From: Christensenellaceae bacterium
Lineage (GTDB): Bacteria > Bacillota > Clostridia > Christensenellales > UBA1242
Length of the DNA: 64,000 bases
Assembly: GCA_031256235.1 (NCBI GenBank)
Contig: JAIRQZ010000032.1
Coordinates: forward strand, 5,224-69,223
Direction of reading: 5' to 3'
The notes under the pieces are model-generated. The model was not told the origin of the DNA. It saw nothing but the letters and a program-made list of their open reading frames with translations, and made no database searches. Numbering within the stretch: position 1 is the stretch's first letter; every line of letters begins with the position of its first letter. Shown here piece by piece: positions 2,633 to 63,395 of the stretch. Position numbers and translations under genes: made by a program.

Positions 2633-3256
2633 TTATGCTTTTATGAAATTGTAACTGCATTTAAAGCCGACGGTTTTGTTGGTTTTTGAAGTGTAGTAAG
2701 ACGCCGTGAGGACAAGAACATCGTCCCAGCGATATTCCAGTTCAAAAAAGATAAACCAAGCCTCTTGGTCGCCTATGGCATTAAGACTTATTACACAATC
2801 GTCCCAAGCACCGTTTGGTATGTATTGACGTTGGACTTTTAACTTATTACCTGCATCAACATAACGGGTGGATTGGCCGTCGGTAAGGCCTGCCTGCAAC
2901 GGCGTCAATGCCCTTAGATCGTCGTGCGGGTTGAATGCCACGTTTGACAACGAAACCGCATTATTTGCACCGATTGTTATTTTTGGCGTCATGGTCATAC
3001 CTTGAAGATAAGCGTTTCTTACGTAGGCAGGCAAGTTTCGAGTCGGAGGGATATCGTTATAACCGCCCAAATAAATAATGGTAGTCGAGTAAGCCGAGGC
3101 ATCGCCCTCGCCAAGGTCAAGCACGTAAAGGCCAGTTGGGATTTCTTCGTCACCGGTTTCTTCTTCACCGCCTTTTTTTCCGAAGTTACACGCCGCAAGC
3201 GTCAGCACGCACGGCACAAGGACCAAGAATACCAAAAACATTTTAAATCTTTTCAT
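2633..3256 (-). CDS. lipoprotein, function unknown
   Basis: Signal peptide MKRFKMFLVFLVLVPCVLTLAAC with lipobox LAAC. TTTACA-N17-TAAAAT promoter ends 6 nt before the ATG. Confidence 0.65.
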   Translation of the reverse strand: MKRFKMFLVFLVLVPCVLTLAACNFGKKGGEEETGDEEIPTGLYVLDLGEGDASAYSTTIIYLGGYNDIPPTRNLPAYVRNAYLQGMTMTPKITIGANNAVSLSNVAFNPHDDLRALTPLQAGLTDGQSTRYVDAGNKLKVQRQYIPNGAWDDCVISLNAIGDQEAWFIFFELEYRWDDVLVLTASYYTSKTNKTVGFKCSYNFIKA

Positions 3257-3262
3257 GTCTTA

Positions 3263-3291
3263 ATTTTACACCCAAAATTTCTTTTTGTAAA
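3263..3291 (-). promoter_or_regulatory. promoter abutting start codon of lipoprotein gene (leaderless geometry)
   Basis: Minus strand TTTACA (3291-3286) - 17 nt - TAAAAT (3268-3263) - 6 nt - ATG (3256). Confidence 0.45.
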
Positions 3292-3307
3292 CTGTTTCGC
3301 GAAATAG

Positions 3308-3336
3308 TAGACATTAATCCCTTATGGCAATATAAT
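3308..3336 (+). promoter_or_regulatory. promoter abutting start codon (leaderless geometry)
   Basis: TAGACA (3308-3313) - 17 nt - TATAAT (3331-3336) - 6 nt - ATG 3343. No Shine-Dalgarno is possible. Confidence 0.5.
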
Positions 3337-3342
3337 AGTAGT

Positions 3343-3999
3343 ATGAAAATTTTTCTTGTAGTTTCCCGGACCTTTTACAAAGAAGTCCATAACGTAAAAA
3401 CAAGGCTTGAAGAACTTGGACACGAGGTTATTGTTCCAATCCTTTACGGTAATTTAATCGCGGACGAAGTCGCACATGCGGCGGGCGCCGAAAAATACGC
3501 CGAATTCCGTCGTAAAGTCATCGCAGCGGGCGACAGAGCAATTTCGGACTCGGATGCAGTTCTGTGCCTTAACTTTGACAAAGGCGGTACAGCGAACTAC
3601 ATATCAAGTGATATGTTCAGCGAACTTTTGCAAGCCTTCGAACGCAAAAAGAAAATCTTTTTATGGAGTTACATCCCCGACGGCGTCCTGCGCGACAGCA
3701 TCCTTGCATGGAACCCAACCGTTATAAAGCGGAAAATATCCACGATCGGAATCGCCGAAAACTTCAAACCTAAACCCGCCGATAAAAAGCCCACGCCTAA
3801 GCCAGCCAAGCCCGTAAAAGAAGCCAAACCTAAACCCGCGAAGGAAGTCAAACCCACGGCGAAGCCCAAGTCCGAAAAACCGAAACCTGCCCCGAAACCG
3901 ACCGCCAAGCCCATAAAAGAAACCAAAACGAAATCCGCACCCAAACCCACAAAGCCTGCGGATAAAAAACCCGCCCCAGTAAAAAAAGTTAAGAAGTAA
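3343..3999 (+). CDS. protein with ~140-aa globular N-domain and 77-aa Lys/Pro/Ala-rich tail
   Basis: The N-domain MKIFLVVSRTFYKEV...SDAVLCLNF... weakly resembles nucleoside 2-deoxyribosyltransferase-like Rossmann proteins (unverified). The tail is KPKPADKKPTPKPAKPVKEAKPKPAKEVKPTAKPK... Confidence 0.65.
   Translation: MKIFLVVSRTFYKEVHNVKTRLEELGHEVIVPILYGNLIADEVAHAAGAEKYAEFRRKVIAAGDRAISDSDAVLCLNFDKGGTANYISSDMFSELLQAFERKKKIFLWSYIPDGVLRDSILAWNPTVIKRKISTIGIAENFKPKPADKKPTPKPAKPVKEAKPKPAKEVKPTAKPKSEKPKPAPKPTAKPIKETKTKSAPKPTKPADKKPAPVKKVKK
3766..3996 (+). repeat. low-complexity K/P/A/T-rich coding repeat
   Basis: Residues 142-218 of the 3343-3999 product. Imperfect KPxP/AKP units are visible in both protein and DNA (aaacc[t/c]aaaccc...). 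Confidence 0.8.
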
Positions 4000-4000
4000 T

Positions 4001-4666
4001 TTACAAATTCTTTTTCAGATGTTGCGTGTAATAAAAAACATACTGTTGGGCGACGCCTGCGTATTTACCGAATGTCGAAAAGTTTATGCCGTGTTCTTGC
4101 GCCTTTTCGATCCAAGTATCCACGGGCGCGACATCAAGGCGGTGGAACGCGAACAACATGACACAGTCGGCGACCTTTCGCCCAACACCCGATATTGACA
4201 TCAAGGTCTTTCGTAATGCTGTGTTGTCAAGTTTGCAAAGTTCCGCATAATCAAGGCCTTTCAGTTGCTTGACGGCTTTGGCCAAATATGGCGCGCGGTA
4301 ACCGCATCCCATGTCGGTAAAATCTTTTTCCGTGTATTTGTCAAGGTTGTTAAAGTCAATCTGCTCTATCGTTTTGGAAAAGCGTTTGATGTTGTTGTTC
4401 GCCGAGATTATAAAAGATACGACGCATTGGGTGAAAGGTTGGCGCAAGATGCGTATCCCCGCGCCCGCCGCAATCGCGGGGACAAGTTCGGGGAAGCGGG
4501 ACAGTTCGCGATTTATGGTATCGTAATCCGTGTCCATATCAAAATAGTGCCAAAACCAATCGGGGGTACTCTCGGGCGGGTCGGTGAATATTTGACCGCT
4601 GTTTCTGATTTTGTACCAATCCAAATTATTTTCTTCACAAAAAGTTTTTGCGTTCACTTTTTTCAT
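4001..4666 (-). CDS. ogg: HhH-GPD DNA glycosylase, 8-oxoguanine glycosylase (Ogg)-type
   Basis: LMSISGVGRKVADCVMLFAFHRLDVAPVDTW (HhH, catalytic Lys in GVGxK, Asp in VD). The ORF-track start at 4693 is TTG and would overlap folD, so ATG 4666 (MKKVNAKTF) is preferred. Confidence 0.7.
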   Translation of the reverse strand: MKKVNAKTFCEENNLDWYKIRNSGQIFTDPPESTPDWFWHYFDMDTDYDTINRELSRFPELVPAIAAGAGIRILRQPFTQCVVSFIISANNNIKRFSKTIEQIDFNNLDKYTEKDFTDMGCGYRAPYLAKAVKQLKGLDYAELCKLDNTALRKTLMSISGVGRKVADCVMLFAFHRLDVAPVDTWIEKAQEHGINFSTFGKYAGVAQQYVFYYTQHLKKNL

Positions 4667-4681
4667 TATACATGTTAAAAT
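4653..4681 (+). promoter_or_regulatory. folD promoter abutting start codon
   Basis: TTCACT (4653-4658) - 17 nt incl. TGt - TAAAAT (4676-4681) - 5 nt - GTG 4687. Confidence 0.35.
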
Positions 4682-4686
4682 AGTTC

Positions 4687-5529
4687 GTGGCAAAAATTCT
4701 TGACGGCAAAGTATTGGCCGAAAAAATCAAAAGTGAACTTAAGACCAAAGCAACGGTGTTTCAAAAAAAACACGGCCGGAAGTGTGGCCTTGCGGTTGTG
4801 CTTGTGGGCAATGACCCCGCAAGCGAAATTTACGTGGCCAACAAAGAAAAGGCCTGCGAAGCCGTGGGCATTGCGTCAATCATCCACAAATGCAAAGACA
4901 ATATAAAACAAGACAAATTGCTAGAGTTAATATCAAGTCTTAACTCCGACAAGAACATCGACGGAGTTTTGGTACAACTGCCCTTGCCCAAACATTTGGA
5001 CAGTGCGAAAATTGTGGGCGCTGTAGCCCCCGCAAAGGACGTGGACGGCTTTTGCGCAGCCAATGTCGGCAATCTTTCATTTGGGGCGCCTTGCGCAATA
5101 CCCTGCACGGCCCGCGGATGTTTGGAACTTGTTAAATCGACTGGGATCAAACTTGCGGGCGCCCACGCGGTCGTCATAGGCCGTAGCAACATCGTAGGCA
5201 AGCCTGTGGCTCAACTTTTGCTGAACAACGACTGTACCGTGACTGTTACCCATTCAAAGACCCGCAACTTGGCCGACCTTACACGGACGGCGGACATCTT
5301 GGTCGCGGCGGCAGGTTGTAAACATCTTGTTACCGCCGACATGGTAAAGCCTGGCGCCGTCGTAATCGACATCGGCATCACCCGTGCGGACGGCAAAATC
5401 TTTGGCGATGTGGACTTTGACAGGGTTCGCGACGTGGCGGGCTATATCACTCCTGTACCTGGCGGAGTCGGGCCCATGACTGTTGCAATGTTACTTAAAA
5501 ATGTCCTTGAAACTGAAAATCACATATGA
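4687..5529 (+). CDS. folD: bifunctional methylenetetrahydrofolate dehydrogenase/cyclohydrolase
   Basis: Full-length FolD pattern: ILDGK..., YVANKEKA, DGVLVQLPLP, VVIGRSNIVGKP, PVPGGVGPMT. GTG start. Confidence 0.92.
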   Translation: MAKILDGKVLAEKIKSELKTKATVFQKKHGRKCGLAVVLVGNDPASEIYVANKEKACEAVGIASIIHKCKDNIKQDKLLELISSLNSDKNIDGVLVQLPLPKHLDSAKIVGAVAPAKDVDGFCAANVGNLSFGAPCAIPCTARGCLELVKSTGIKLAGAHAVVIGRSNIVGKPVAQLLLNNDCTVTVTHSKTRNLADLTRTADILVAAAGCKHLVTADMVKPGAVVIDIGITRADGKIFGDVDFDRVRDVAGYITPVPGGVGPMTVAMLLKNVLETENHI

Positions 5530-5543
5530 TATAATGTGTGTAC

Positions 5544-5618
5544 GCACTTGTGGTGAAATGGATATCACGGAAGTCTACGGAACTTTTATTTCAGGTTCGA
5601 GTCCTGACAGGTGCACCA
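5544..5618 (+). tRNA. tRNA-Arg (anticodon ACG), CCA encoded
   Basis: Acceptor GCACTTG/CAGGTGC (one G-U); D stem GTGA/TCAC; anticodon stem GAAGT/ACTTT with loop CTACGGA; T arm TCAGG-TTCGAGT-CCTGA; A + CCA. 75 nt. Confidence 0.9.
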
Positions 5619-5685
5619 AAGAACATATCCCATTTGTACCCAGTAATGAACTTGTTTTTCATGTGGTAATATGCTACCATGTTAC

Positions 5686-6309
5686 ATGGTATTGTATTTA
5701 TCTTCATATAAATTAGGCAATCGAACTGACGAATTAAAACACTATGCCCAAACGCACAAAAAGATTTTGTTAATTGCGAACTCTCGTGATCACTTTACAG
5801 ATTTGGAGCGGATAGAAAAAGGCGTATCAGTAGACGAAAAACAATTAAGCGAACTTGGATTTGAAGTAACGCGATTGGATTTACGAAAATTTTTTGGCAA
5901 GCAAAAAGACCTAGAAAAATTTATTGCAAAATACAATGGCTTTTATGTAATTGGCGGAAATACTTTTGTTTTGCGCAAAGCATTTGCTTTAAGCGGTATG
6001 GATAATATTCTTTTATCGTTTTGGAGCTATCCAAATTATTTGTATATTGGCTACTCCGCAGGAATTTGTGTTCTATGCGAAGATTTACACGGGCTTATCC
6101 TTGTTGATGAACCCGGGGGTGACCCGATTTGGAATGGTCTGGGATATATTCATCCGATTTATTTGCCACATTATAGAAGCGACCACCCTGAAAGCAAGAT
6201 GGTTAACGATTGTGTTAAATATTGCAAAGCACACGATTTACCGTACGAAACGCTTAAAGACGGCGACGTAAAAATATTAAACTCACATACTTGGAAAAGG
6301 GGTTCTTAA
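5686..6309 (+). CDS. peptidase S51 (dipeptidase E-like) family protein
   Basis: VIGGNTFVL and YIGYSAGICV (Ser nucleophile context). The ORF-track start 5671 lies inside a TGgTAATAT -10-like element, so ATG 5686 (MVLYLSSYKLG) is preferred. Confidence 0.6.
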   Translation: MVLYLSSYKLGNRTDELKHYAQTHKKILLIANSRDHFTDLERIEKGVSVDEKQLSELGFEVTRLDLRKFFGKQKDLEKFIAKYNGFYVIGGNTFVLRKAFALSGMDNILLSFWSYPNYLYIGYSAGICVLCEDLHGLILVDEPGGDPIWNGLGYIHPIYLPHYRSDHPESKMVNDCVKYCKAHDLPYETLKDGDVKILNSHTWKRGS

Positions 6310-9171: not shown

Positions 9172-9193
9172 GGTTCATGTTATGAAATACTAT

Positions 9194-9222
9194 TTACAAA
9201 TAGTGACAATATCTGTTATATA
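9194..9222 (+). promoter_or_regulatory. promoter abutting GT2 start codon (leaderless geometry)
   Basis: TTACAA (9194-9199) - 17 nt incl. TGt - TATATA (9217-9222) - 6 nt - ATG 9229. Confidence 0.45.
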
Positions 9223-9228
9223 ACTTGC

Positions 9229-10554
9229 ATGGAACTTGTAGACCAAATTATTAAATACACAACGTTGGGTGTCGGGATTTTGGCGGGCTATCAAATCGTG
9301 TTGCTGTTAATCGGGCTTTTTTTCAAGGCTCGGATTTGGCCCGAAACCGATGTACGTTCAAACTTTGCGGTGTTGATTCCCGCACGCAACGAAGAGAAGG
9401 TTATCGGGAATCTTATCGAAAGCATCCAAAAACAAAACTATCCCCAGGCCAAAATAACTATCTTTGTAATTGCCGATAATTGCCAAGACAAGACGGCCGA
9501 AATCACAAGGAAGATGGGCGCAGTTGCTTACGAACATAATGACCCGACACAACAAAGGCGCGGTTATGCTCTTGATTACGGGTTGCAATGCATTAAAACC
9601 GACTATGCAACCGAGGCCCAACCAAATGGTATACTTGCATTTGACGGGTACTTTATGTTTGATGCTGATAACTTGTTGGACCCGAATTTTGTGCTTGAAA
9701 TGAACAAAGCATTCCAAAATAAAAAGTACGGGTACTTTATGTCATACATCCATTCAAAAAACATCGACACTTCATTCATTTCCTCTTGGTCAAGCAAGCA
9801 GGCATATGTGAATAACTCTGCCACAAACAGGCCGACGAATATTGTAAGGCACAGCCCCCGTTTGCGTGGGCCTGGTGGTTTGGTACGTGCAGAGTACTTA
9901 AGCAAGGGTTGGCTTTGGCCGAATATCACCGAGGATTGGGATTTTTCATTCCACCATATATCAAGAGGTGTACGTGGTGCATATGTCGAAGCAGCACAGT
10001 TTTACGACGAACAGGCTAACAATTTGAAGATACTTTTGCGTCAACGAAAAAGGTGGGAAAAAGGTCACATCCAGGTTTGGCTTTGGTATTGTCCGATGCT
10101 TTTTTGGGGCATGCTTTGGAACAGGGGCCTAGCCCGAAGATTCAGTTGTTACGACCAACTAATATGCGGATTCCCAACGGGCTTGCTTTCGCTTTTCATG
10201 GGATTTTTGTACCCGCTTGCGACTACAATCTATAATGTTGTAACGGGCACAAGTTCATGGCTCACAATGGCAACATGGGTTGGGACTTACTTTGCCATTG
10301 TATATGCGCAAGACTTTGCCCGCTCTTTCGTTGCAATTATACGCGAGCGCAAACGAATTAGATGCAAGACCCGAAAACTTTTTGCCCGTATGTTCTTTTG
10401 GCCTTTTATCGCAATAATGTTGCAATACAACACTTTGGTTGCGTACATCATCCCTATCAAATGGAAAGTCATCCCGCACACCGAAGACAAGAAAATCGAA
10501 ACAATGAACAAACAATCTTTGATTTTCGAGAGGACGAACAAAAAGGTTGACTAA
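9229..10554 (+). CDS. membrane-integrated family 2 glycosyltransferase (processive synthase type)
   Basis: AVLIPARNEE, VIADNCQDKT, FDADN (DxD), LRQRKRWEKG (QxxRW). TM helices at the N-terminus and in the C-terminal third. Confidence 0.8.
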   Translation: MELVDQIIKYTTLGVGILAGYQIVLLLIGLFFKARIWPETDVRSNFAVLIPARNEEKVIGNLIESIQKQNYPQAKITIFVIADNCQDKTAEITRKMGAVAYEHNDPTQQRRGYALDYGLQCIKTDYATEAQPNGILAFDGYFMFDADNLLDPNFVLEMNKAFQNKKYGYFMSYIHSKNIDTSFISSWSSKQAYVNNSATNRPTNIVRHSPRLRGPGGLVRAEYLSKGWLWPNITEDWDFSFHHISRGVRGAYVEAAQFYDEQANNLKILLRQRKRWEKGHIQVWLWYCPMLFWGMLWNRGLARRFSCYDQLICGFPTGLLSLFMGFLYPLATTIYNVVTGTSSWLTMATWVGTYFAIVYAQDFARSFVAIIRERKRIRCKTRKLFARMFFWPFIAIMLQYNTLVAYIIPIKWKVIPHTEDKKIETMNKQSLIFERTNKKVD

Positions 10555-10575
10555 ATTTTTTCAAGGCTGTATATA
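10547..10575 (+). promoter_or_regulatory. promoter abutting start codon (leaderless geometry)
   Basis: TTGACT (10547-10552) - 17 nt - TATATA (10570-10575) - 7 nt - ATG 10583. Confidence 0.45.
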
Positions 10576-10582
10576 TTAAGAT

Positions 10583-10918
10583 ATGAAATTCAAGTTCAAT
10601 TTACAAAAGTTTCCTTTAAGCCAAATTTACCAAATGGTTGCCGCGGTCTTGTTTTTAATCGGTGCCGTGTTCATGCTGTTCAATACCTTTGCTGACAAAG
10701 TATGGGCCTTTTGGACTGGGCTTGGGTTCGCGTTGGCGGCGTCCGTGGCTTATATCATGATGGTCATCGAGGCCAAACGCGTTTTGCAAAAAAAATTGAC
10801 AGATTCGTCATATTCCGACAAAAAAGATAATACGATAGTACATGAAAAAAATGAGACTAAAACTGAAACTCCCGAAGATAAGCCTGCCAAAACTAAAACT
10901 ACCAAAACTAGGTCGTAA
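10583..10918 (+). CDS. small membrane protein with K/T/E-rich tail
   Basis: Two hydrophobic helices (VAAVLFLIGAVFMLF; GLGFALAASVAYIMMVI), then ...KNETKTETPEDKPAKTKTTKTRS. Confidence 0.55.
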   Translation: MKFKFNLQKFPLSQIYQMVAAVLFLIGAVFMLFNTFADKVWAFWTGLGFALAASVAYIMMVIEAKRVLQKKLTDSSYSDKKDNTIVHEKNETKTETPEDKPAKTKTTKTRS

Positions 10919-12852: not shown

Positions 12853-12901
12853 TTATAAAACCTCCTTTGGCAATGATATTTACCAATGTACAACACTTAT
12901 T

Positions 12902-14549: not shown

Positions 14550-14579
14550 GTCGAATTATTGCACGCGGAAAGCCGAAAG

Positions 14580-16769: not shown

Positions 16770-16796
16770 AAAAAATTACAAAAAGTCAATATCGGG

Positions 16797-27368: not shown

Positions 27369-27382
27369 AAAATGGTAAGAAT

Positions 27383-41590: not shown

Positions 41591-41595
41591 AAATA

Positions 41596-46039: not shown

Positions 46040-46051
46040 AAGGAGTCCCAT

Positions 46052-47975: not shown

Positions 47976-47977
47976 AA

Positions 47978-49180: not shown

Positions 49181-49418
49181 GCTTCATTATACTGGTTTTC
49201 TTTTTATTGTCCAAATGTTTTTCTGCGGTCTTTTCGACGGTTTGCTGTTGTACATTTTCTTGGGTTTTAGTGTCTTCTAACTCGTACCCGACCATATAGG
49301 GGTCGGCGTCTTCGTTATTATCAAAACTTTCAAGCGGGCTTTTTTTGGTAATTTCGACTTTGCTCCGAAGGAACTTTTCGACAATTTCGCTTGGTACACG
49401 TCTTACAATAAAAGCCAT
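49143..49418 (-). CDS. hypothetical acidic small protein (91 aa)
   Basis: AAGGAG RBS 7 nt upstream of ATG 49418, directly after the recR stop. The 3' end overlaps the pgk start by 38 nt and contains the predicted pgk promoter. Confidence 0.45.
   Translation of the reverse strand: MAFIVRRVPSEIVEKFLRSKVEITKKSPLESFDNNEDADPYMVGYELEDTKTQENVQQQTVEKTAEKHLDNKKKTSIMKHGKSNNKEFERD
49186..49214 (-). promoter_or_regulatory. pgk promoter abutting start (leaderless geometry)
   Basis: Minus strand TTGGAC (49214-49209) - 17 nt - TATAAT (49191-49186) - 5 nt - ATG 49180. Confidence 0.45.
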
Positions 49419-50573: not shown

Positions 50574-52944
50574 AACTTGCATTATATGGCAAAACAAAAG
50601 ACTTGTCAACCGTTGAATCCAACCTTGCGACCGCGACCGTGCAATCGTCTATCGCAATCTTGTCGGTGCGCTTAAGACATTCCGATACGATTTCGTCGGC
50701 AAGTTTTTGAGGCGTCTTGGCCGACGAGTTATTAATAAAGTTCGCAAGTGCCACCCTGTCGCTGAAACTGTCCAAGACTCCGTCACTGCAAATAACGGCA
50801 TAATCGCCAGGATGAAGGTGCGCCCTTGTGATTTTTGGCACCATTTCCTCCACAATTCCCAAGGGCAAACTGCCCGCCTCTATGACTTCGATTTCGCGGG
50901 CGCGCTTTATGAACCCCTCGACCCCACCAACCTTTATAAAGTTGACCTCGCCGTCGCTTAAGGAAAACACCGCAATGTCGACGGCGGAAAAGCCCTCCTG
51001 TCCCGTAATAATAAGGAGTTGGTTTACGCTTTCGACAATAATTTCGTTGGGGAAGCCCGCCTTGTAAAAGTTTTCAACCAAACTTAATGCCAACACACTT
51101 GCACGCCTGGCCTTTTCTCCCGTGCCCATGCCGTCGCAAACCGACATCATGGTCTTGTCCGATGTGATTTTCAAGAATGAAAATGCGTCGCCGTTTTGCG
51201 GATTAAAGTCCTTTGAAACCTGGGCAATGCCAAAAGTCAGGCCATACTTGGGCGCGGTCTTGACGGTGACAATGGAAAAGCCCGCGGTTTCGGCATCATC
51301 AATAGTGTCAACCGCCATGCGATGCCCCGCGATTTTCGAGATGACACGTTCAATAGCAAGGTTTTGGGCTTCTGCGCGAGGAACCAAAACACTTACGTTA
51401 TACTCGCCGTCTCGGTTCTTTGTAATCAAAACATCGCTTGCCACGATACCTGCGCCCAGCAACGCGTCTTTGATTTCGGCGCCTTTTTCGATGTCAAAGA
51501 CGACCTCGCTTCCAAGTTCCACCGCAAAGTTTTTGCAAAGTCGGTGAAGCCCCGACAAAAGCCCAGCCATCAAGACCTTGCCCGCGTCGGTTTTCATACG
51601 GCTTGTCTCTTGGGTTTGGATCTGACTGACATAACTGTTGGCCGAATTTAAAACCGCATTAAGTTTCGTGCACTTAAGCGACATATCGGGCGTGATATCC
51701 ATAAAATTCACGTTGCCACGCCCAAGTCCGATAAAACACAACTTTTCAAACCCGTCGTCGATATCTTTCGCGGCGTTTGCGTCCCGCTTGCATTTTGGCC
51801 GATGCTCGCACGAACTGCACACGTTATCGCAAAGACGGCGCGCAAGCATCTTGGCGCTTTCTTCGCGCGGAACGCTGCCCGTTACAAGATTTTTGTAGAT
51901 GTTTTGCATCTCGTTGAACACGGAGCCCAAATTATCAAGTCGTCTGTAAACCCCTGCACGATTTTTGTTGATAGTATTTTTGCTTACAAGATAGCCACTT
52001 AAAATGCTTTTTGAAAAATCAAAGTATTTGGACACGGCGCGTGGCAAGACAAGGGCACCCAAGCATGCAAGCGCCAATGGTAAAACATCAAACACCCCGT
52101 ACCCGTAATAGGCCCGAAAGTAAAATCCCAAAACGACATCGGTGACCATAACGGCAATGATACTTAAATATTTTGTACTGCATTTAAAAGATACCGCGGC
52201 CATGGCAAGCAATGTATACGTTGAGACATAAATCAAATCAAGGCTCTGTAAACTTGCGCCCAAGCCAAGACACGCCGCGACCACCATTGCCGTGCGCGAA
52301 TCAAGCATGGACGCAGCAATCAAAATCACAAACACACTTACAAATTTGTGCAAATTAAAATAATCATAACGAAGCCCCATAAGTCCAAGCGACAAAACCA
52401 CAATAAAAACGCCTGCGCAAATCCGTTGGTCAGGTGTCCAAGGGATACGGCCTCCCCGTGTCCCTGTGGCATTGAAAAACATAAGGCAACTTGCCAAAAA
52501 CACCGTCCCGATTGCAAAATTTACACCTGCGCTATATAGTCCCAACAAATCGCCCCACGCAAAAAAGATGCCCGCAATATTGCTTGCCATGTATAAAAAG
52601 AAAATCACAGCGTATTCAAGTTTATATTTTCGCCATACTTTGCGTGCACCATATTTTTGTTTCAATATCGGCAAGCACCATGCAAGCATAAAAAATGTGG
52701 CAACTGCAACGATACTTGCGATGATATCTTGTCGTCCGTCCACCACGAACAAGGAAAACAAAAACACACACAACCCTATACCGACTTTGTTCACACGTAA
52801 GATCACACAAGCAAACAAAAATGCAACCGCAAATGGTGCCACCCTGTTATCGACTTTGGCAAAAGTTAAAACCAACAATGCCATCGCAAGCCCTGCGTTA
52901 AATGATATAATCTTAAGCCACTTAAGCCTTTGTGCCTTGGTCAT
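50551..52944 (-). CDS. spoIIE: stage II sporulation protein E (membrane PP2C phosphatase)
   Basis: About 10 N-terminal TM helices, a central regulatory region and a C-terminal PP2C domain (SVCDGMGTGEKA...ICSDGVLD). 797 aa. Confidence 0.85.
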   Translation of the reverse strand: MTKAQRLKWLKIISFNAGLAMALLVLTFAKVDNRVAPFAVAFLFACVILRVNKVGIGLCVFLFSLFVVDGRQDIIASIVAVATFFMLAWCLPILKQKYGARKVWRKYKLEYAVIFFLYMASNIAGIFFAWGDLLGLYSAGVNFAIGTVFLASCLMFFNATGTRGGRIPWTPDQRICAGVFIVVLSLGLMGLRYDYFNLHKFVSVFVILIAASMLDSRTAMVVAACLGLGASLQSLDLIYVSTYTLLAMAAVSFKCSTKYLSIIAVMVTDVVLGFYFRAYYGYGVFDVLPLALACLGALVLPRAVSKYFDFSKSILSGYLVSKNTINKNRAGVYRRLDNLGSVFNEMQNIYKNLVTGSVPREESAKMLARRLCDNVCSSCEHRPKCKRDANAAKDIDDGFEKLCFIGLGRGNVNFMDITPDMSLKCTKLNAVLNSANSYVSQIQTQETSRMKTDAGKVLMAGLLSGLHRLCKNFAVELGSEVVFDIEKGAEIKDALLGAGIVASDVLITKNRDGEYNVSVLVPRAEAQNLAIERVISKIAGHRMAVDTIDDAETAGFSIVTVKTAPKYGLTFGIAQVSKDFNPQNGDAFSFLKITSDKTMMSVCDGMGTGEKARRASVLALSLVENFYKAGFPNEIIVESVNQLLIITGQEGFSAVDIAVFSLSDGEVNFIKVGGVEGFIKRAREIEVIEAGSLPLGIVEEMVPKITRAHLHPGDYAVICSDGVLDSFSDRVALANFINNSSAKTPQKLADEIVSECLKRTDKIAIDDCTVAVARLDSTVDKSFVLPYNASYGKEKSY

Positions 52945-52998
52945 AAGATGACAGTATCAAACTTACGACAAAATATTTTGTGTATAGCGGGCGAATAA

Positions 52999-53036: not shown

Positions 53037-53064
53037 TTGAAAAATCTTTTTTTTATTGTATAAT
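53037..53064 (+). promoter_or_regulatory. secA promoter abutting start (leaderless geometry)
   Basis: TTGAAA (53037-53042) - 16 nt - TATAAT (53059-53064) - 5 nt - ATG 53070. Confidence 0.5.
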
Positions 53065-53069
53065 TTGAT

Positions 53070-55796
53070 ATGGGACTTTTTTCATCTGATAATACGCGCC
53101 ATGTGCGCAGGTTACAAAGAATAGCCAATCGCGTCATGTTACTGGAGGACACCTACAAAGCAAAAACCGACGACGAACTGCGGGCAATGACCGCCGAGTT
53201 TAAAGAGGCCATAAAAAACGGCAAGACAGTTGACCAAATTTTGCCCGACGCATTTGCGACGGTGCGCGAAGCCGCCGACCGCGTTTTGAATCAACGCGCC
53301 TTTTATGTCCAAGTCCTTGGAGGTATCGCGCTTCACCAAGGCCGAATCGCTGAAATGAAGACAGGTGAAGGTAAAACATTAACAAGTATCTTCCCTGTCT
53401 ATTTAAATGCACTTTTGGGGAAAGGCGTACATGTCGTCGAAGTCAACGAATATCTTGCCAAACGTAACCAAGAATGGATGGGTAAGGTCCACCGCTTTTT
53501 GGGACTTACGGTCGGGTACAGCCGTGGCCAAGACGACGGCAAAGAAAAAAAAGCAGCCTATGATTGCGACATCACTTATGTAACATCAAGCGAATTGGGC
53601 TTTGATTACCTGCGTGACAACACGGCCCACGACAAGCGTGAACGTGTTCAGCGCGGTCAATACATGGCAATCGTCGACGAGGCCGACAGTATCTTAATAG
53701 ATGAAAGCCGTACTCCCCTTATCATGTCGTCCCGTACCCAAGACAACAGCAAACAATACCAAATATGCGACAAGTTCGTACGGACTTTGCACGAAGACGA
53801 TTATGAAATCGACCTTAAAGAACGCGCCGTCCGCTTGATGGAATCTGGTATCGAAAAAGCCGAACGCGCCTTTAGTATTGACAACATAAGTGGCGCCGAA
53901 AATATGGAACTTAACCACTTCATCAACAACGCACTTAAGGCGCACCTTATATTCTCGGAAGGCGGCGATTATATCGTCAGCAAGGACAAAGAAATTATCA
54001 TCGTTGACCAAAACACAGGACGCCAAATGCAAGGGCGCCGTTACAGCGATGGACTTCACCAAGCAATCGAGGCCAAAGAAGGCGTACCTATCCGTAACGA
54101 AGACAAAACAGTTGCCACAATCACGATTCAAAACCTGTTCAAGTTATATTCAAAACTGTCGGGCATGACGGGTACCGCGAAAACCGAGGAACAGGAATTT
54201 ATAAAAATTTATGGCGTCGATGTCGTTTGTATCCCGACCAACAAAGACGTCATCCGCGAAGACGCCGCCGACGTTGTGTTCACGAAACTTGAAAAGAAAA
54301 TGCAAGCCATACTTGAAGACGTCGAATATCGATATGGTCGAGGCCAACCTGTCCTTATAGGTACGACTACAATCGAAAAATCGGAAGACATTGCAAAGAT
54401 GTTAAAGATGAAAAAAATCCCCCACAACGTATTGAACGCCAAGCACCACGAACGCGAGGCCGACATCGTCGCACAGGCTGGAAGATTGGCTCAAGTCACA
54501 ATTGCTACCAACATGGCGGGTCGTGGTACCGACATTTTGCTTGGCGGTAACCCAGAATATTTGGCAACCCAACAACTTAAAAAAGAAGAATATGATGACG
54601 AACAAGTCTATAACGCCACAAGTTACCAAGAAACCGACAATCCCGAAATCCACAAACTGCGCGACCATTATAAACAACTGTTTATCCGTTACAAGGAACA
54701 AACCGACAAAGAAAAAGAAAAAGTCATCGACCTTGGCGGGCTTCATATTATAGGAACCGAACGCCATGACAGCCGCCGAATCGATAACCAACTTCGGGGC
54801 CGAAGCGGACGTCAAGGCGACCCTGGCTCGACCATTTTCTATATATCCTGTGAAGACGAAATCATAAAACGCTTTGGAAAGGACGTCATAGGCGGCGCGT
54901 TACGCCTGTTCAGAATGGACGATATACAAAGCCGTATGCTTACACGCATGTTTGAACGCGTACAAAAACGCGTCGAGGGCTATTACTTTGACGCCCGCAG
55001 ATATACATTTGAATATGACAATGTCCTTAACGGTCAACGCGAATTGATTTACAAAGAACGCAACCAGTTACTTGACGGCGCAGACGTCCACAAGCAAATC
55101 CTTAACATGTTCCCCGAAGTCGTACAAAAAATTGTCTCCGAAGCAATCGACACAAGCGCAAACCACACCGAATGGGATTTGGCAAAGGCCAATGAAGTGT
55201 TGGGCTCGCGCCTGTTTGGTAAAAAAGTCGAGTACCTTGACAAAGAAAACACCGACAATGCGGACTATACCGAAATCGAGCAAATGGTTTACGACGCCGT
55301 CATTGAACAATACGAAGCCAAAGTCAAAAAAATCACAGACGACGGCTTTGACTTTGCGGGCCTTGAACGCAACGTGTTGTTGTCCGTCGTCGATAACAAG
55401 TGGATGGACCACATCGACGCGATGGTACAGTTGCGCAACGGCATAGGCCTGCGCGGTTATGGACAACAAAACCCACTTAACGAATATCGTCGCGAAGCAA
55501 TCGATATGTTCAATCTCATGGTCGAAGCCATAAACGAACACGCCGTATTGTTCTTGTTCAAAATCCAAATCGAAAAACAAGCACGCCCGATGCCTGTCCG
55601 AGTCCATGCCAAGCCCGTCTCGGACGCCAGTGCGAAAGGGATCGCACCGACCACTGACCCGTTGTCAACATCAAAGACCCCTGTAGCAACGGCATCCGCG
55701 ACGGGCTCTTATACCAACACTGGCAAAGAAGTCGGGCGCAATGAACCCTGCCCTTGCGGAAGTGGCAAGAAGTACAAAAACTGTTGCGGACAATAG
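53070..55796 (+). CDS. secA: preprotein translocase ATPase SecA
   Basis: Full-length SecA (MKTGEGKTL, DEADSILIDE, TNMAGRGTDI) with the C-terminal zinc motif CPCGSGKKYKNCCG. Confidence 0.98.
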   Translation: MGLFSSDNTRHVRRLQRIANRVMLLEDTYKAKTDDELRAMTAEFKEAIKNGKTVDQILPDAFATVREAADRVLNQRAFYVQVLGGIALHQGRIAEMKTGEGKTLTSIFPVYLNALLGKGVHVVEVNEYLAKRNQEWMGKVHRFLGLTVGYSRGQDDGKEKKAAYDCDITYVTSSELGFDYLRDNTAHDKRERVQRGQYMAIVDEADSILIDESRTPLIMSSRTQDNSKQYQICDKFVRTLHEDDYEIDLKERAVRLMESGIEKAERAFSIDNISGAENMELNHFINNALKAHLIFSEGGDYIVSKDKEIIIVDQNTGRQMQGRRYSDGLHQAIEAKEGVPIRNEDKTVATITIQNLFKLYSKLSGMTGTAKTEEQEFIKIYGVDVVCIPTNKDVIREDAADVVFTKLEKKMQAILEDVEYRYGRGQPVLIGTTTIEKSEDIAKMLKMKKIPHNVLNAKHHEREADIVAQAGRLAQVTIATNMAGRGTDILLGGNPEYLATQQLKKEEYDDEQVYNATSYQETDNPEIHKLRDHYKQLFIRYKEQTDKEKEKVIDLGGLHIIGTERHDSRRIDNQLRGRSGRQGDPGSTIFYISCEDEIIKRFGKDVIGGALRLFRMDDIQSRMLTRMFERVQKRVEGYYFDARRYTFEYDNVLNGQRELIYKERNQLLDGADVHKQILNMFPEVVQKIVSEAIDTSANHTEWDLAKANEVLGSRLFGKKVEYLDKENTDNADYTEIEQMVYDAVIEQYEAKVKKITDDGFDFAGLERNVLLSVVDNKWMDHIDAMVQLRNGIGLRGYGQQNPLNEYRREAIDMFNLMVEAINEHAVLFLFKIQIEKQARPMPVRVHAKPVSDASAKGIAPTTDPLSTSKTPVATASATGSYTNTGKEVGRNEPCPCGSGKKYKNCCGQ

Positions 55797-59294: not shown

Positions 59295-59957
59295 TCATAT
59301 TACAGCACTTGCGATAAGTTGCGCAAGCATCTTTTGATATGCGGTCGTTTTAAGCAACTTCTCTTCGGAGGGATTTGACAAAAATCCGCACTCGACAAGC
59401 ACCGACGGGAACGCCGTGCATTCAAGTATATAATAGTCCCCAACCGTTGCACGCCTGTTGATATTAAGGCTGCTTTTGTTAAAGTTTTCTTGAATGGCTT
59501 GTGCGTATTCTTTGCTTTTCTCACCTGTCTTGTCAAAAAAGGTCTGTAGACCTCGTACAGCAGGATTTGACGGAAAACTGTTAAGATGTATTGATATCAC
59601 TAAATCGGGCTTGACCTGTTCGATGATTTTGCGGCGCTCGTCCATATCGCTCCTCTTTTGATTCTTTGCATATGGACTTGCAAGACTGTGTTCATTGGCA
59701 CGCGTCAATGTAACGCCAGCGCCCCTATGTTCAAACTCGGCCTTAAGATGTTTCGCAATCGCAAGATTTATGTCGCGTTCAAGTGTACCACTTCGACTTG
59801 ATGCACCGCCGTCACGGCCTCCGTGCCCCGCATCAATCACAATGTGAAAGCCTTCGGACCGCGCATGCACCTGGGCACCCGAAAAATCGAACGCAAGACT
59901 TGCAACAACCGCCACGGCAAGTGCGACACATAAGGCAACATAAGACAACTTCCTCAC
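59295..59957 (-). CDS. cwlD: N-acetylmuramoyl-L-alanine amidase (Amidase_3, CwlD-like)
   Basis: N-terminal anchor. VIDAGHGGRDGGA...ISIHLNS...VLVECGFLSN. GTG start. Confidence 0.75.
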   Translation of the reverse strand: MRKLSYVALCVALAVAVVASLAFDFSGAQVHARSEGFHIVIDAGHGGRDGGASSRSGTLERDINLAIAKHLKAEFEHRGAGVTLTRANEHSLASPYAKNQKRSDMDERRKIIEQVKPDLVISIHLNSFPSNPAVRGLQTFFDKTGEKSKEYAQAIQENFNKSSLNINRRATVGDYYILECTAFPSVLVECGFLSNPSEEKLLKTTAYQKMLAQLIASAVI

Positions 59958-59987
59958 TACAATATATATCGTCGATTTTTGTCGATA

Positions 59988-60016
59988 TTGACAAATTTGG
60001 GCAACTGTGATATAAT
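59988..60016 (+). promoter_or_regulatory. consensus sigmaA promoter
   Basis: TTGACA (59988-59993) - 17 nt incl. TGa - TATAAT (60011-60016), a perfect consensus with extended -10. Confidence 0.55.
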
Positions 60017-60035
60017 AAAAATGGAGAAATTTTTA

Positions 60036-60611
60036 ATGAACACTACAGGAAGAAAACTTGGAACATTTATCTTGGCTACTACTTTATTACTTGGACCTAC
60101 AGTAAAAGCAAATGCCGGGCAAGGTCTTTCCCCTAACCACGACACCAATGTCAAAACGGCAATCGAAGACAACAGCCCAATGTGGTATTTAAAAAAGGTT
60201 GCGGAATCCCAAGACAGCATATCCACACAAAAAAAAGTTGCCATTGCGACTATCAACGCCAGCATGAACGCAGTAATGAACGCACAAATGATTTGTGCGG
60301 CATACGGCCGAGGCAACAATATTGAATTAATAAACCAAGCCTATGACATACTTGACCAGGCATTTGCACAAACCATGGTGTTGGACCAAAGTTTAGCGAC
60401 TTTGTATTCCGTGTCAAAAAATATAAAGAAGTATGACCGAGCCCAATTAAGCGAAATCGCGCTGTGGTTGCCAAACATGGCAACAAGTACATTTATGACT
60501 GTAGACGAAATACGACAAATGTGTGCTATGGCAATCGGCAAAGCGCAACAAGCCACAGCAGGAATCCAAATCCCGCAAACGCAAAGAAAAATTCCCGACA
60601 AAACTGTTTAA
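60036..60611 (+). CDS. secreted protein, unknown function
   Basis: Signal peptide MNTTGRKLGTFILATTLLLGPTVKANA. GGAG lies 9 nt upstream of ATG 60036. An alternative ATG at 60021 is 4 nt after the -10 box. Confidence 0.5.
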   Translation: MNTTGRKLGTFILATTLLLGPTVKANAGQGLSPNHDTNVKTAIEDNSPMWYLKKVAESQDSISTQKKVAIATINASMNAVMNAQMICAAYGRGNNIELINQAYDILDQAFAQTMVLDQSLATLYSVSKNIKKYDRAQLSEIALWLPNMATSTFMTVDEIRQMCAMAIGKAQQATAGIQIPQTQRKIPDKTV

Positions 60612-61561: not shown

Positions 61562-61570
61562 GTAATGATG

Positions 61571-62038
61571 TTACACCCCGCCACGGATTTCCCCAACCGT
61601 TTTTTGTGTTTCACGCTCAATGTCGCGTTCCTTTAACGCGGCTCTTTTATCATAATTCTTTTTGCCCAGTGCAAGCGCGATTTCTAACTTCACGCATCCC
61701 TGTTTGTTGAAATAAATCCGAGTAGGCACACATGTATAGCCCTTTGCCTTGACCGCGGTGTGTATCTTGCGAATTTCACTTTTATTCAAAAGCAACTTCC
61801 TGTCCCGCCTCGTTTCCTGTGTCTTTACATCGCCAAATTGAAAAGGCGAAAAGTGCGCATTTTTCAACCACGCCTCGACAACTCCGTCGGTAACAGTAAA
61901 ATGTACAAAACTGTCTTTTAAATTTACCGTGCTGGCACGTGCCGACTTGACTTCCCACCCAAGCAACGCGACACCCGCCTCGAACTTGTCTTCAATAAAA
62001 AAGTCGTGCCTGGCCTTCCTGTTGTCACTTATGTTCAT
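61571..62038 (-). CDS. smpB: SsrA-binding protein SmpB
   Basis: NRKARHDFFIEDKFEAGVALLGWEVKS...ETRRDRKLLL... full-length SmpB. 4-nt overlap with trpS. Confidence 0.93.
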   Translation of the reverse strand: MNISDNRKARHDFFIEDKFEAGVALLGWEVKSARASTVNLKDSFVHFTVTDGVVEAWLKNAHFSPFQFGDVKTQETRRDRKLLLNKSEIRKIHTAVKAKGYTCVPTRIYFNKQGCVKLEIALALGKKNYDKRAALKERDIERETQKTVGEIRGGV

Positions 62039-62988
62039 TTTACACCTATTGCTTTGCGTACGCGGTCAAGCGTTTCCCGCGCAACCCCGCGCGCCTCGAC
62101 CGAGCCTTTTTCAAGAATCTTTTCAACCTCGGCATAGTGGCTCATTAAATGATTGTATTTTTCACGCATAGGCGCGATTACCTTGTCCATGGCCTCGAAT
62201 AACTTTTGTTTGGCATCGCCCCACCCGATTTTGTTATCAAGTTCCTTGCCCGTGAAATGTTTGTACAACTGGAATATAAGATGTTCCTTGGGTTTGGCCT
62301 CGTTTGGCGCGCTTGAATCCGTAGCAATGCGTTTTACGCACTTTAAAAGTTCTGCACTGTCACAAAACAACGGAATAATGTTACCGTAACTTTTGGACAT
62401 CTTGCGCCCGTCAAGGCCTTGTATCGTCGCAACATCCTCGCGGATAGTTTCCTTTGGCACAACCAAAGTGTCACCGTACACGGCGTTAAACGACTTGGCA
62501 ATGTCGCAGGCAATTTCGATGTGTTGCTTTTGGTCGGAACCCACAGGAACAAGATTAGTATTAAACAACAAAATATCCGCGGCCATCAAAATCGGATAAT
62601 TGTAAAGACCCATATTCACATCAAAGTCGGCATCGCGCTTTTGTTCAATATTCGACGCAATCGCCGCTTTGTACGAATGCGCCCTGTTCATAAGCCCCTT
62701 CGGAGTCACATTTGTCAAAATCGTCGCAAGTTCGAAAACTTCTGGCACATCGGACTGGCGGTAAAACACCGTCTTTTTGGGGTCAAGTCCGCACGCAAGC
62801 CAAGTACACGCAACTTGCTTCACCGACTCGGCATGGGCTTTTGGTTCGTGAACTTGATTCAGTGCATGGTAATCGGCAATAAAGCAATGCGTACCGCCCA
62901 TATCAATCATGGGCCTAATCGCGCCTAAATAATTCCCGACATGTGGCGTGCCTGTGCATTTAATCCCAGTTAAAACTATTTTTCCCAT
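62035..62988 (-). CDS. trpS: tryptophan--tRNA ligase
   Basis: HIGH-type TGTPHVGNYLG, KMSKS, class I Rossmann fold. ATG 62988 (MGKIVLTG) is preferred over the track start 63024. Confidence 0.93.
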   Translation of the reverse strand: MGKIVLTGIKCTGTPHVGNYLGAIRPMIDMGGTHCFIADYHALNQVHEPKAHAESVKQVACTWLACGLDPKKTVFYRQSDVPEVFELATILTNVTPKGLMNRAHSYKAAIASNIEQKRDADFDVNMGLYNYPILMAADILLFNTNLVPVGSDQKQHIEIACDIAKSFNAVYGDTLVVPKETIREDVATIQGLDGRKMSKSYGNIIPLFCDSAELLKCVKRIATDSSAPNEAKPKEHLIFQLYKHFTGKELDNKIGWGDAKQKLFEAMDKVIAPMREKYNHLMSHYAEVEKILEKGSVEARGVARETLDRVRKAIGVK

Positions 62989-62993
62989 ACGAC

Positions 62994-63022
62994 ATTGTAT
63001 CATACAAACACCAACTTGACAC
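62994..63022 (-). promoter_or_regulatory. trpS promoter abutting start (leaderless geometry)
   Basis: Minus strand GTGTCA (63022-63017) - 17 nt incl. TGa - TACAAT (62999-62994) - 5 nt - ATG 62988. Confidence 0.45.
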
Positions 63023-63044
63023 AAGCGAAACTATGTGCTATATT
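63016..63044 (+). promoter_or_regulatory. promoter abutting start of 63051 gene (leaderless geometry)
   Basis: TTGACA (63016-63021) - 17 nt incl. TGc - TATATT (63039-63044) - 6 nt - ATG 63051. Its -35 overlaps the trpS -35 on the other strand. Confidence 0.5.
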
Positions 63045-63050
63045 ACGTTA

Positions 63051-63395
63051 ATGGAAAATAAAGAACTCTGGGACACTCTGTCCACCTATATCAGGGATAC
63101 AGAATCACAAAACAAAAAGGCCATGAAAAAATTTGCTGTGATACCCGAATGGGACTGCAAGACTGCGTTTTTGCAAGGCAAAGCCATAACCCTGTACGAA
63201 GTCGGCAACAAAATGTCAAGGCTTAACGGCGACGTTACCAAACTGCGCAAATACATTACACGCGAACAAAGACAAAACGGCAGGGTCTACAGGCGCTATT
63301 CCAAAAAGCATTCTGTGACCGACCCTGTCAAAACTGGACTTATATCAAGTGGTCTCACATTAAAAAACATCCAAGCCATTATCGGCGAAAATTAA
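63051..63395 (+). CDS. hypothetical basic protein (114 aa)
   Basis: MENKELWDTLSTYIRD... ATG 63051 is preferred from the promoter geometry. No motif recognised. Confidence 0.45.
   Translation: MENKELWDTLSTYIRDTESQNKKAMKKFAVIPEWDCKTAFLQGKAITLYEVGNKMSRLNGDVTKLRKYITREQRQNGRVYRRYSKKHSVTDPVKTGLISSGLTLKNIQAIIGEN

Follow-up and report, generated by a model that had tools for sequence, protein, structure and literature searches.

Firmicutes are the textbook phylum of Shine-Dalgarno (SD)-dependent translation. In the GeneMarkS-2 classification, group C, whose genomes have 25-50% of operons predicted to be leaderless, takes in 90% of Actinobacteria, 97% of Deinococcus-Thermus and 36 of 1064 Firmicutes (3.4%) (PMC6028130), and 167 of 262 mapped mRNAs of Deinococcus deserti are leaderless, as far as that work is quoted in the same article. 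Zheng et al. put the Firmicutes mean at 4.2% leaderless genes and the maximum at 16.6%, concentrated in Lactobacillales and Mycoplasma (PMC3160421); mapping in Clostridia (C. phytofermentans and solventogenic clostridia) gave 2-4% leaderless transcripts and 5′ untranslated region (5′UTR) peaks near 30 nt (PMC5171806, PMC9045289), and 16% of transcripts are leaderless-like in the reduced genome of M. pneumoniae (PMC10568206). Literature searches on leaderless genes, directed at Christensenellales, bacteria of termite guts and Bacillota, returned no prior report for Christensenellales or termite-gut Clostridia. Here we describe a 64-kb stretch of DNA (44.5% GC) from contig JAIRQZ010000032.1 of a Christensenellaceae bacterium, analyzed over its whole length and called the window below, in which most transcription units would be expressed as leaderless mRNAs from sigma-A promoters and internal cistrons would use SD sites, a reading to which we give a probability of about 0.78.

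An original prediction, made by inspection of the window, had listed 14 starts at which the -10 hexamer of a sigma-A-type promoter ends 5-7 nt before the start codon. When the 60 nt upstream of each start were printed, all 14 sites were recovered with their hexamers, spacers and distances to the named ATG or GTG (Table 1), and the extended -10 (TGn), claimed for many of them, was seen at about half of the 14. The SD sites quoted for tuf, 33985, 36494, 46052, tpiA and 49418 were also found. A blind scan of both strands for a -35, N16-18 and a -10 yielded 192 matches with a score of at least 9, including 50 with a score of at least 10, which we call strong. Among the 13 best (score at least 11), eight are followed 5-7 nt on by the ATG or GTG of a long open reading frame (ORF), one is followed by such a start at N4, and one lies before a tRNA. 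Fourteen of the 50 strong matches sit 4-8 nt before the start of an ORF of at least 100 codons (eight at a distance, d, of 5 nt, three at 6, two at 7 and one at 4), against a background at other offsets from 0 to 60 of 0.46 long-ORF starts each on average (Poisson P = 1.6e-7). The distance plot that had been proposed along with the 14 sites shows, for the window, a sharp peak at d = 5-7 over other offsets. Gene-centric counting, for which ORFs of at least 120 amino acids (aa) were used and any ATG or GTG within the first 40 codons was allowed as start, found a promoter scoring at least 9 at d = 4-8 in 16 of the 52 window ORFs and in 2-4 ORFs for each of the other 5-nt bins. A second, independent promoter scanner placed its top five matches in 44-64 kb at 50581, 60016, 53064, 49186 and 63044, all of them 4-7 nt before a long-ORF start. 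Sites beyond the 14 were found at 1033, 4657, 14549, 16754, 41646 and 50573 (Table 1), with weaker ones at 5686(+), 27737(+), 9171(-), 52944(-) and 59957(-).

Comparison sets were gathered with the window's SecA and comprised 80 genome loci and 80 metagenome loci. The nearest genomes are two termite-gut metagenome-assembled genomes (MAGs), Co191P1_bin89 (L001, SecA 74% identical) and Lab288P1_bin46 (L002, 69%), which recur in the metagenome set as the duplicates L083 and L084; four termite-gut metagenome contigs (L081, L082, L085 and L086) encode SecA 77-81% identical to that of the window, 81% being the best public relative. The remaining SecA loci, at 45-54% identity, come from Christensenellales, Anaerovoracaceae, Oscillospiraceae and others, and 78 genome and 74 metagenome Clostridia loci (152) formed the outgroup. 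Hervé et al. 2020 place both MAGs in Firmicutes; Clostridiales; Christensenellaceae; 'Gut cluster 13'; the bins measure 1.11 Mb at 72% completeness and 1.20 Mb at 87%, with coding densities of 94% and 92% and GC contents of 43.5% and 40.4% (PMC7024585 supplement). SecA identity and MAG taxonomy together suggest that the window comes from a genome-reduced, uncultured termite-gut Clostridia lineage close to 'Christensenellaceae Gut cluster 13'.

The lineage-specific occurrence of the geometry is the strongest control. The 4-8 nt promoter-to-start peak of the window recurs in all clade loci, with 6 long-ORF starts at d = 4-8 from 16 strong promoters in L001, 6 from 25 in L002, 6 from 16 in L082, 3 from 8 in L085 and 5 from 10 in L086. 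The genome outgroup gave 7 such starts from 783 strong promoters (~24 expected) and the metagenome outgroup 17 from 601 (~19 expected). Counted by ORF, a promoter scoring at least 9 at d = 4-8 precedes 31% both in the window and in the clade loci (five related termite-gut contigs), compared to 2.5% in the genome outgroup, 4.3% in the metagenome outgroup and 4.6% in a GC-matched outgroup; the outgroup total is 51 of 1549 ORFs (Fisher p = 5e-11 versus the window and 8e-15 versus the clade). The d = 4-8 bin holds 16 ORFs in the window and 23 in the clade, the other 5-nt bins hold 1-7, and outgroup promoters rise instead toward 24-38 nt upstream of starts. None of the 152 outgroup loci was individually enriched for the geometry. 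AT-richness was ruled out as the cause, since outgroups of 26-35% GC show it at 2.3%.

The nature of the hexamer was examined with a non-circular test, in which sites were picked on TAnnnT at d = 4-8 alone and then scored for the -35 and TG elements. Clade sites had a -35 match of at least 5/6 in 26% of cases at 16-18 bp spacing, versus 0-5% at seven other spacings, and TG at -15/-14 in 30%, with neighboring offsets mostly at 1-12% and one at 21%. Outgroup TAnnnT sites showed neither the -35 spacing signal nor the TG signal in the same test. With -35 enrichment confined to spacings of 16-18 bp, and that of TG to -15/-14, the hexamer appears to be a genuine promoter -10 and not an RNA-level motif. 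The consensus drawn from 39 leaderless-geometry sites, TTGnCA-N17-TGnTATAAT, agrees with the description of a sigma-70/sigma-A extended -10 promoter, for which a TTGACA-like -35, a 17 ± 1 bp spacer, TGn and a TATAAT-like -10 with invariant A2 and T6 are expected. A -10-like box acting as a non-SD ribosome-binding motif, in the style of the Bacteroidetes (group B), was rejected given the spacing-specific -35 and TG and the absence of the box from internal genes. Longer leadered or read-through transcripts with non-SD translation (for example A/U-rich standby or S1-type), on which the TATAAT-like box would be an A/U-rich translation element, would fit the occurrence of some sites within operons with no terminator ahead, as well as the boost that A/U-rich upstream regions give to translation in other bacteria (discussed in PMC5397173). 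We regard this explanation as highly improbable, as such an element has no need for TTGACA exactly 16-18 bp upstream, nor for TG at -15/-14; the AT-rich outgroup Clostridia (26-35% GC) lack the peak, the tRNAs are preceded by the same promoter type, and at divergent gene pairs with starts 14-64 bp apart the only upstream source of a transcript would be antisense through the neighbor.

Such divergent pairs are unusually compact. For divergent gaps, measured motif-free between longest ORFs, the window and clade together give a median of 67 bp and the outgroup one of 233 bp (p = 4e-4), and the curated start-to-start distances in the window are 14, 30, 56, 58, 63, 64, 87 and 126 bp. Starts 14-64 bp apart leave no room for leaders, and the short distances mean that paired promoters are interleaved or share -35/-10 boxes, each lying within the coding sequence of the partner gene. 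At 45486(-) and 45500(+), with starts 14 bp apart, the two -10 boxes overlap on opposite strands; the folD and Ogg-like promoters, at 30 bp, each lie inside the partner's coding sequence (4653-4693); and the -35 hexamers overlap at trpS/63051 (63016-63022) and 59957/60021 (59986-59993), pairs 63-64 bp apart. Judging from this layout, RNA polymerase binding at overlapping divergent promoters should be mutually exclusive, and N-terminal codons should be constrained by the partner promoter. Co-directional gaps are also tiny, with a median of 3 bp by longest ORFs in 44001-64000, and terminator-like hairpins in the same 20 kb are not above shuffled sequence (25 versus 28.4 ± 5.1), which makes them unusable for defining operon ends; this lineage may mark the ends of its transcripts in another way.

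At the leaderless-geometry sites, C accounts for 44% and T for 31% of the bases at -1 (pyrimidine in 74%), compared to 14% C at outgroup SD genes (p = 1.4e-5 for C at -1; p = 0.005 for pyrimidine versus purine). A pyrimidine before the purine of ATG or GTG matches the Y(-1)R(+1) pattern that transcription starts usually show and is probably an instance of it. The promoters of tRNA-Arg and tRNA-Leu, at 8-9 nt, provide a translation-independent calibration of the -10-to-start distance; across four tRNAs (tRNA-Arg, tRNA-Leu, L002 tRNA-Thr at 449-524 on the minus strand, and tRNA-Ser at 275-366) the -10 ends 8, 9, 11 and 20 nt upstream, respectively. The promoters could be real and yet start a few bases before (sometimes after) the ATG, producing mini-leaders of 1-8 nt with SD-independent ribosome loading. 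Spacings that span N4-N8, near-misses at N10 (34310) and N14 (27383), tRNAs whose N8-N11 distances imply 1-4 nt leaders, and a favored N=5 that is below the canonical optimum would all be accommodated by mini-leaders. We nevertheless consider them unlikely, since the step from a pyrimidine at -1 to the purine that opens the codon fits initiation exactly at the start codon, and at N=5-6 most discriminators have no upstream purine at a usable distance; furthermore, a 5′UTR of up to 5-8 nt is still classed as leaderless in most transcription-start studies (PMC9045289, PMC10568206). 'Leaderless tRNAs' were dropped as a claim, as leaders of 1-4 nt are likelier than none. The predicted 5′ leaders of ~1-4 nt at tRNA-Arg, tRNA-Leu and L002 tRNA-Thr, all three of which follow strong promoters with a TGn-extended -10, would be unusually little substrate for RNase P.

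The start codons were checked against the alignment positions of NCBIfam/Pfam profiles and against signal peptides. Residue 1 falls on profile position 1 for FolD and Pgk, as do GTG 27229 of DnaE (NF007079), ATG 29691 of the PHP-domain protein (NF006702) and ATG 62988 of TrpS; residue 2 of Rbr falls on position 3, residue 3 of SecA on position 5, residue 3 of the ABC ATPase on position 1 (residues 3-5 on positions 1-3), residue 5 of Amidase_6 on position 2 and residue 6 of the EcoRI methylase on position 2. Lipoprotein or signal peptides begin at 3256, 41590, 27737, 7511 and 59957. By these alignments, the chosen start codons appear to be the true N-termini. The 39 leaderless-geometry starts are 31 ATG and 8 GTG, and the start is not the first start codon of its ORF at 6 of the 14 listed sites and at the added sites 1033, 4657, 5686, 16754 and 41646. 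This last feature, seen among others at dnaE, trpS, 41590, 63051, 29691, 1033 and 16754, is what would be expected if an ATG or GTG had been chosen for a nearby -10-like hexamer and the true starts, with ordinary SD sites, lay elsewhere. Such a start-picking artefact is hardly credible, however, given that family profiles put position 1-3 on the chosen codon (FolD, DnaE, PHP, Rbr, Pgk, SecA and TrpS), that lipoprotein and signal peptides begin at chosen codons, that no SD-preceded alternative start lies nearby, and that the same permissive procedure returns only 2.5-4.6% in the 152 outgroup loci and 2-4 matches in other offset bins.

SD use is complementary to the geometry, being absent at leaderless-geometry sites and kept at operon-internal genes and tuf. 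An SD 5-mer and a promoter scoring at least 9 at the leaderless distance occur together in none of the window ORFs and in three ORFs of the clade loci, and ~20 of 21 operon-internal window genes are preceded by four or more nucleotides of the SD core (GGAG, GAGG, AGGTG or AAGGA, 4-12 nt upstream). The frequency of SD 5-mers is 35% for the window, 27% for the clade and 55-57% for the outgroups. Curation gave ~34 first genes of transcription units, of which 22 have strong leaderless geometry, 3 weak leaderless geometry and 3 a near-leaderless arrangement (N4, N10 and N14), and the remaining 6 (7168, 7273, tuf, 22523, 33985 and typA at 37640) are leadered with an SD. On this tally, ~65-75% of the window's transcription units look leaderless.

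Several points weigh against leaderless expression as the general rule. The -35 or -10 is weak at 9171, 52944, 59957, 7511 and 10842. The commonest window spacing, N=5, places initiation at the sixth base past the -10, one base nearer than the usual optimum; the mode in the relatives is N=6. About seven promoters (pgk, 14549, 16754, 50573, 10583, 27737 and 29691) fall within an upstream gene of the same direction or directly behind it, and read-through transcripts with untranslated internal leaders probably exist as well. The best promoter of the window was dropped as the strongest leaderless case, the N4 distance to ATG 60021(+) being too short and an in-frame GGAG-N9-ATG following; it is equally readable as the source of a short SD-containing leader. 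The sample, finally, is 64 kb plus ~100 kb of relatives (~165 kb), all around secA. Against these points stand the geometry, its statistical excess, its lineage restriction, its conservation and start codons that prove correct, all of which were shown on these loci, and each prediction of the leaderless reading that could be tested on sequence was borne out (-10 identity, starts, SD absence, -1 pyrimidine, tight divergent pairs and secA conservation).

From these observations we infer where exactly transcription starts and how the ribosome is loaded. Sigma-A RNA polymerase would bind a canonical Gram-positive promoter, TTGnCA-N17-TGnTATAAT, and begin transcription at a purine 6-8 nt past the -10, that is, at the A or G of the ATG or GTG, so that the mRNA would start no more than ~2 nt from the start codon. 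The 5′-terminal AUG would then be taken directly by the ribosome (70S or 30S-IF2-fMet-tRNA) with no Shine-Dalgarno pairing. Downstream cistrons and the few leadered genes, such as tuf and typA, would retain AGGAGG-type SD sites, and two modes of initiation would coexist.

Conservation of the arrangement is clearest at secA, upstream of which six clade members have unalignable sequence, yet each carries -35/N16-18/-10/N5-7/ATG, with TGn in five of the six. In relatives of ~50% identity, secA has GGAG, AGGAG or GAGGAG 6-10 nt upstream. Other genes have one arrangement in some members and the other elsewhere: pgk has leaderless geometry in the window and L082 and an SD in L002 and L086, recR has an SD in the window and leaderless geometry in L002 and L086, and trpS and rbr, both with leaderless geometry in the window, are SD-led in L082 and L086, respectively.

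Compared to described systems, the window resembles Actinobacteria (Mycobacterium tuberculosis/smegmatis, Streptomyces and Corynebacterium) and group C genomes in having a -10 (TANNNT) that ends ~6-8 nt before the start of first genes, no SD at those first genes, and SD sites at internal ones. It differs from them in its low-GC Gram-positive promoter with a clear -35 and TGn, in its Clostridia host, and in bins of only ~1.1-1.2 Mb that are 92-97% coding; its apparent share of leaderless units is also at or above the top of the range quoted for bacteria. Deinococcus deserti and Deinococcus-Thermus share a -10 directly upstream of the ATG and a similar scale, the majority of mRNAs, but belong to another phylum, have large, high-GC genomes, and were mapped experimentally, whereas leaderless expression here is deduced from the DNA. 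Mycoplasma and other Mollicutes, along with Lactococcus and Streptococcus, are Firmicutes-related systems in which a share of genes is detectably leaderless and -10 boxes carry the TG extension (PMC3160421). In Mycoplasma, however, SD use is largely lost (8% of genes), unlike the strong SD sites at internal genes here, and the present lineage has an apparent leaderless fraction ~2-4-fold higher, is a walled Clostridia relative and carries a spoIIE homologue. With typical Clostridia and the Christensenellales outgroup loci, the window shares the sigma-A promoter consensus and the SD consensus, but promoters in the outgroup loci peak 24-38 nt upstream and secA there has a GGAG-type SD. The original prediction had called leaderless initiation on this scale unexpected for a spore-former. 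The surprise is justified for a Firmicute or a member of the Clostridia, given the 2-4% of mapped clostridial transcripts and the 36 of 1064 Firmicutes in group C, but the label 'spore-former' has as its sole basis a spoIIE homologue that scores below the NCBIfam cut-off. Directly ahead of the -10 of this homologue, a conserved motif resembling a Spo0A box is found at the same position in the window (TTTGTCGTAAG), L002 (TTTGTCGAAAT), L082 (TTTGTCGTAAC) and L086 (TTTGTCACAT), which suggests that Spo0A-type control may have been retained in genome bins of ~1.1-1.2 Mb.

Table 1 Promoter-to-start arrangements at window genes, with contrast cases and tRNAs (start-codon position in parentheses; lower-case letter, n of TGn)
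Feature	Coordinates	Strand	Arrangement	Remarks
Methyltransferase-like gene	1031..1067	-	TTTACA-N17-TGaTACATT-N5-ATG(1033)	Newly found; weak NCBIfam methyltransferase match
Lipoprotein (MKRFKMFLVFLVLVPCVLTLAAC)	3254..3291	-	TTTACA-N17-TAAAAT-N6-ATG(3256)	Site 1 of 14; signal peptide from this ATG
ORF 3343	3308..3345	+	TAGACA-N17-TATAAT-N6-ATG(3343)	Site 2 of 14; divergent from 3256
Ogg-like glycosylase	4655..4693	-	TTGCCA-N17-TATAAT-N7-GTG(4657)	Newly found; promoter within folD; starts 30 bp apart
folD	4653..4689	+	TTCACT-N17-TGtTAAAAT-N5-GTG(4687)	Site 3 of 14
tRNA-Arg	5507..5618	+	TTGAAA-N17-TGaTATAAT	-10 ends 8 nt before mature 5′ end
Peptidase S51 (MVLYLSS...)	5652..5688	+	TTGTTT-N17-TGcTACCAT-N5-ATG(5686)	Candidate
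GT2 glycosyltransferase	9193..9231	+	TTTACA-N18 (or TTACAA-N17)-TGtTATATA-N6-ATG(9229)	Site 4 of 14
Small membrane protein	10547..10585	+	TTGACT-N17-TATATA-N7-ATG(10583)	Site 5 of 14
tuf	12853..12900	-	AAGGAGG (12867-12861) 8 nt before ATG(12852)	Contrast case; promoter-like sites 32-46 nt upstream
ABC transporter ATPase	14547..14583	-	TTGACT-N17-TGcAATAAT-N5-ATG(14549)	Newly found; promoter overlaps upstream gene's end
Sulfatase-family membrane protein	16752..16789	-	TTGACT-N18-TGaTATATA-N5-ATG(16754)	Newly found
dnaE	27227..27264	-	TTGCGT-N17-TGaTACACT-N6-GTG(27229)	Site 6 of 14
ORF 27383	27340..27385	+	TTGACC-N17-TATAAT-N14-ATG(27383)	Short leader, predicted ~7-8 nt; no clear SD
GDPD lipoprotein	27702..27739	+	TTGCAA-N17-TAACAT-N6-ATG(27737)	Candidate
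PHP-domain phosphoesterase	29689..29726	-	TTGATT-N17-CATACT-N6-ATG(29691)	Site 7 of 14
tRNA-Leu	34080..34202	+	TTGCTA-N17-TGgTATATT	-10 ends 9 nt before mature 5′ end
EcoRI-type methylase	34271..34312	+	TTGACA-N17-TAGAAT-N10-ATG(34310)	Near-leaderless; predicted leader ~3 nt; no SD
Large lipoprotein (MLKKFFAAIVVPMIALMSGIVLTAC)	41588..41624	-	TTGCCT-N17-TGaTACATT-N5-ATG(41590)	Site 8 of 14
146-aa ORF, first of U32 peptidase operon	41611..41648	+	TTTACA-N17-TATCTT-N6-GTG(41646)	Newly found; divergent from 41590 (56 bp)
NTPase (TIGR00258 family)	45484..45520	-	TTGTGT-N17-TGcTATAAT-N5-ATG(45486)	Site 9 of 14
Rubrerythrin	45465..45502	+	TTGACC-N18-TGtCATATT-N5-ATG(45500)	Site 10 of 14
Operon-internal gene	46040..46054	+	AAGGAG 6 nt before ATG(46052)	Contrast case
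tpiA	47976..47989	-	GAGGTGA 7 nt before ATG(47975)	Operon-internal contrast case
pgk	49178..49214	-	TTGGAC-N17 (TGGACA-N16)-TATAAT-N5-ATG(49180)	Site 11 of 14; promoter internal to upstream 91-aa ORF 49143-49418
Zinc-ribbon/YabQ-like protein	50571..50609	-	TTGACA-N17-TATAAT-N7-ATG(50573)	Newly found; perfect consensus; conserved in L082
spoIIE homologue	52942..52972	-	TGaTACTGT-N6-ATG(52944)	Weak, no -35; Spo0A-box-like TTTGTCGTAAG at 52972-52962
secA	53037..53072	+	TTGAAA-N16-TATAAT-N5-ATG(53070)	Site 12 of 14
Amidase_3 with signal peptide	59955..59991	-	TATATA-N5 (or TATATT-N3)-GTG(59957)	Weak; poor -35
Best promoter of window	59988..60038	+	TTGACA-N17-TGaTATAAT	Ambiguous: ATG(60021) at N4, or ~13-15 nt leader with GGAG-N9-ATG(60036), same frame
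trpS	62986..63022	-	GTGTCA-N17-TGaTACAAT-N5-ATG(62988)	Site 13 of 14
ORF 63051	63016..63053	+	TTGACA-N17-TGcTATATT-N6-ATG(63051)	Site 14 of 14

A curated gene set (~60 protein genes and 3 tRNAs) covers 96.9% of the window and includes the housekeeping genes folD, tuf, dnaE, typA, rubrerythrin, tpiA, pgk, recR, secA, smpB and trpS, together with the spoIIE homologue, ABC transporters, and a GmrSD/HNH nuclease accompanied by two EcoRI-type methylases. The nuclease and methylases form a probable defense/restriction-modification island at 34118-37588 (+) that adjoins tRNA-Leu, in which tandem paralogous EcoRI-type adenine methyltransferases (34310-35437 and 35418-36497) are followed by a GmrSD_N + HNH nuclease (36494-37588). 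The similarity of a 183-aa ORF at 28386-28937 (-) to WhiA is limited to the C-terminal portion (one LAGLIDADG-like domain and a helix-turn-helix). This ORF overlaps the 3′ end of the PHP-domain gene (28870-29691, -) by 68 nt and may represent a WhiA that is truncated or mis-framed; upstream of it, within the PHP gene, there is a TGTATAAT box. Two other co-directional pairs have long overlaps, 10583-10918/10842-11615 (+) by 77 nt and 49143-49418/pgk (-) by 38 nt, and gene models or starts are uncertain at both.

Three further arrangements lie close to the geometry described here. Near the 5′ end of the ABC-transporter gene 57539-59290 (-), ATG and GTG are lacking and TTG 59290 and TTG 59281 are the only candidate starts; TAATAT lies 6 nt upstream, the upstream amidase gene ends 4 nt before, and a TTG-initiated leaderless or coupled start is possible. 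At 56277-56311 (+), antisense inside the ABC-transporter gene 55812-57542, a good promoter match, TTCAAA-N17-TATAAT, is followed at N5 by TTG; it may mark the start of an antisense transcript or be a chance match. TGgTATATT (7249-7254, +) is followed at N7 by a mini-ORF, ATG GAG GGT ATA TGA (7262-7276), whose GGAGGG doubles as the SD of the 72-aa gene at 7273 and whose stop overlaps that gene's ATG; this is either a leaderless 4-codon upstream ORF or merely a 13-nt SD leader.

These results do not point to a new mechanism; on sequence grounds, they would add a new lineage to a known phenomenon, at a frequency unusual for the phylum. We lean, with little more than even confidence, toward the view that a termite-gut-specific, streamlined Clostridia lineage has independently turned about two thirds of its transcription units leaderless, and that the change is recent and dynamic, with pgk, recR, trpS and rbr flipping between genera. 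SD-trained gene finders will mis-call starts in these MAGs, and promoter and operon prediction for them needs a leaderless model. If the reading is true, the clade would be a natural system for how and why bacteria switch initiation modes, possibly through genome compaction, and its comparison with relatives could serve to address the drivers of leaderless gain, such as genome streamlining or changes in the ribosome or initiation factors, as well as the evolution of promoters within neighboring coding sequence.

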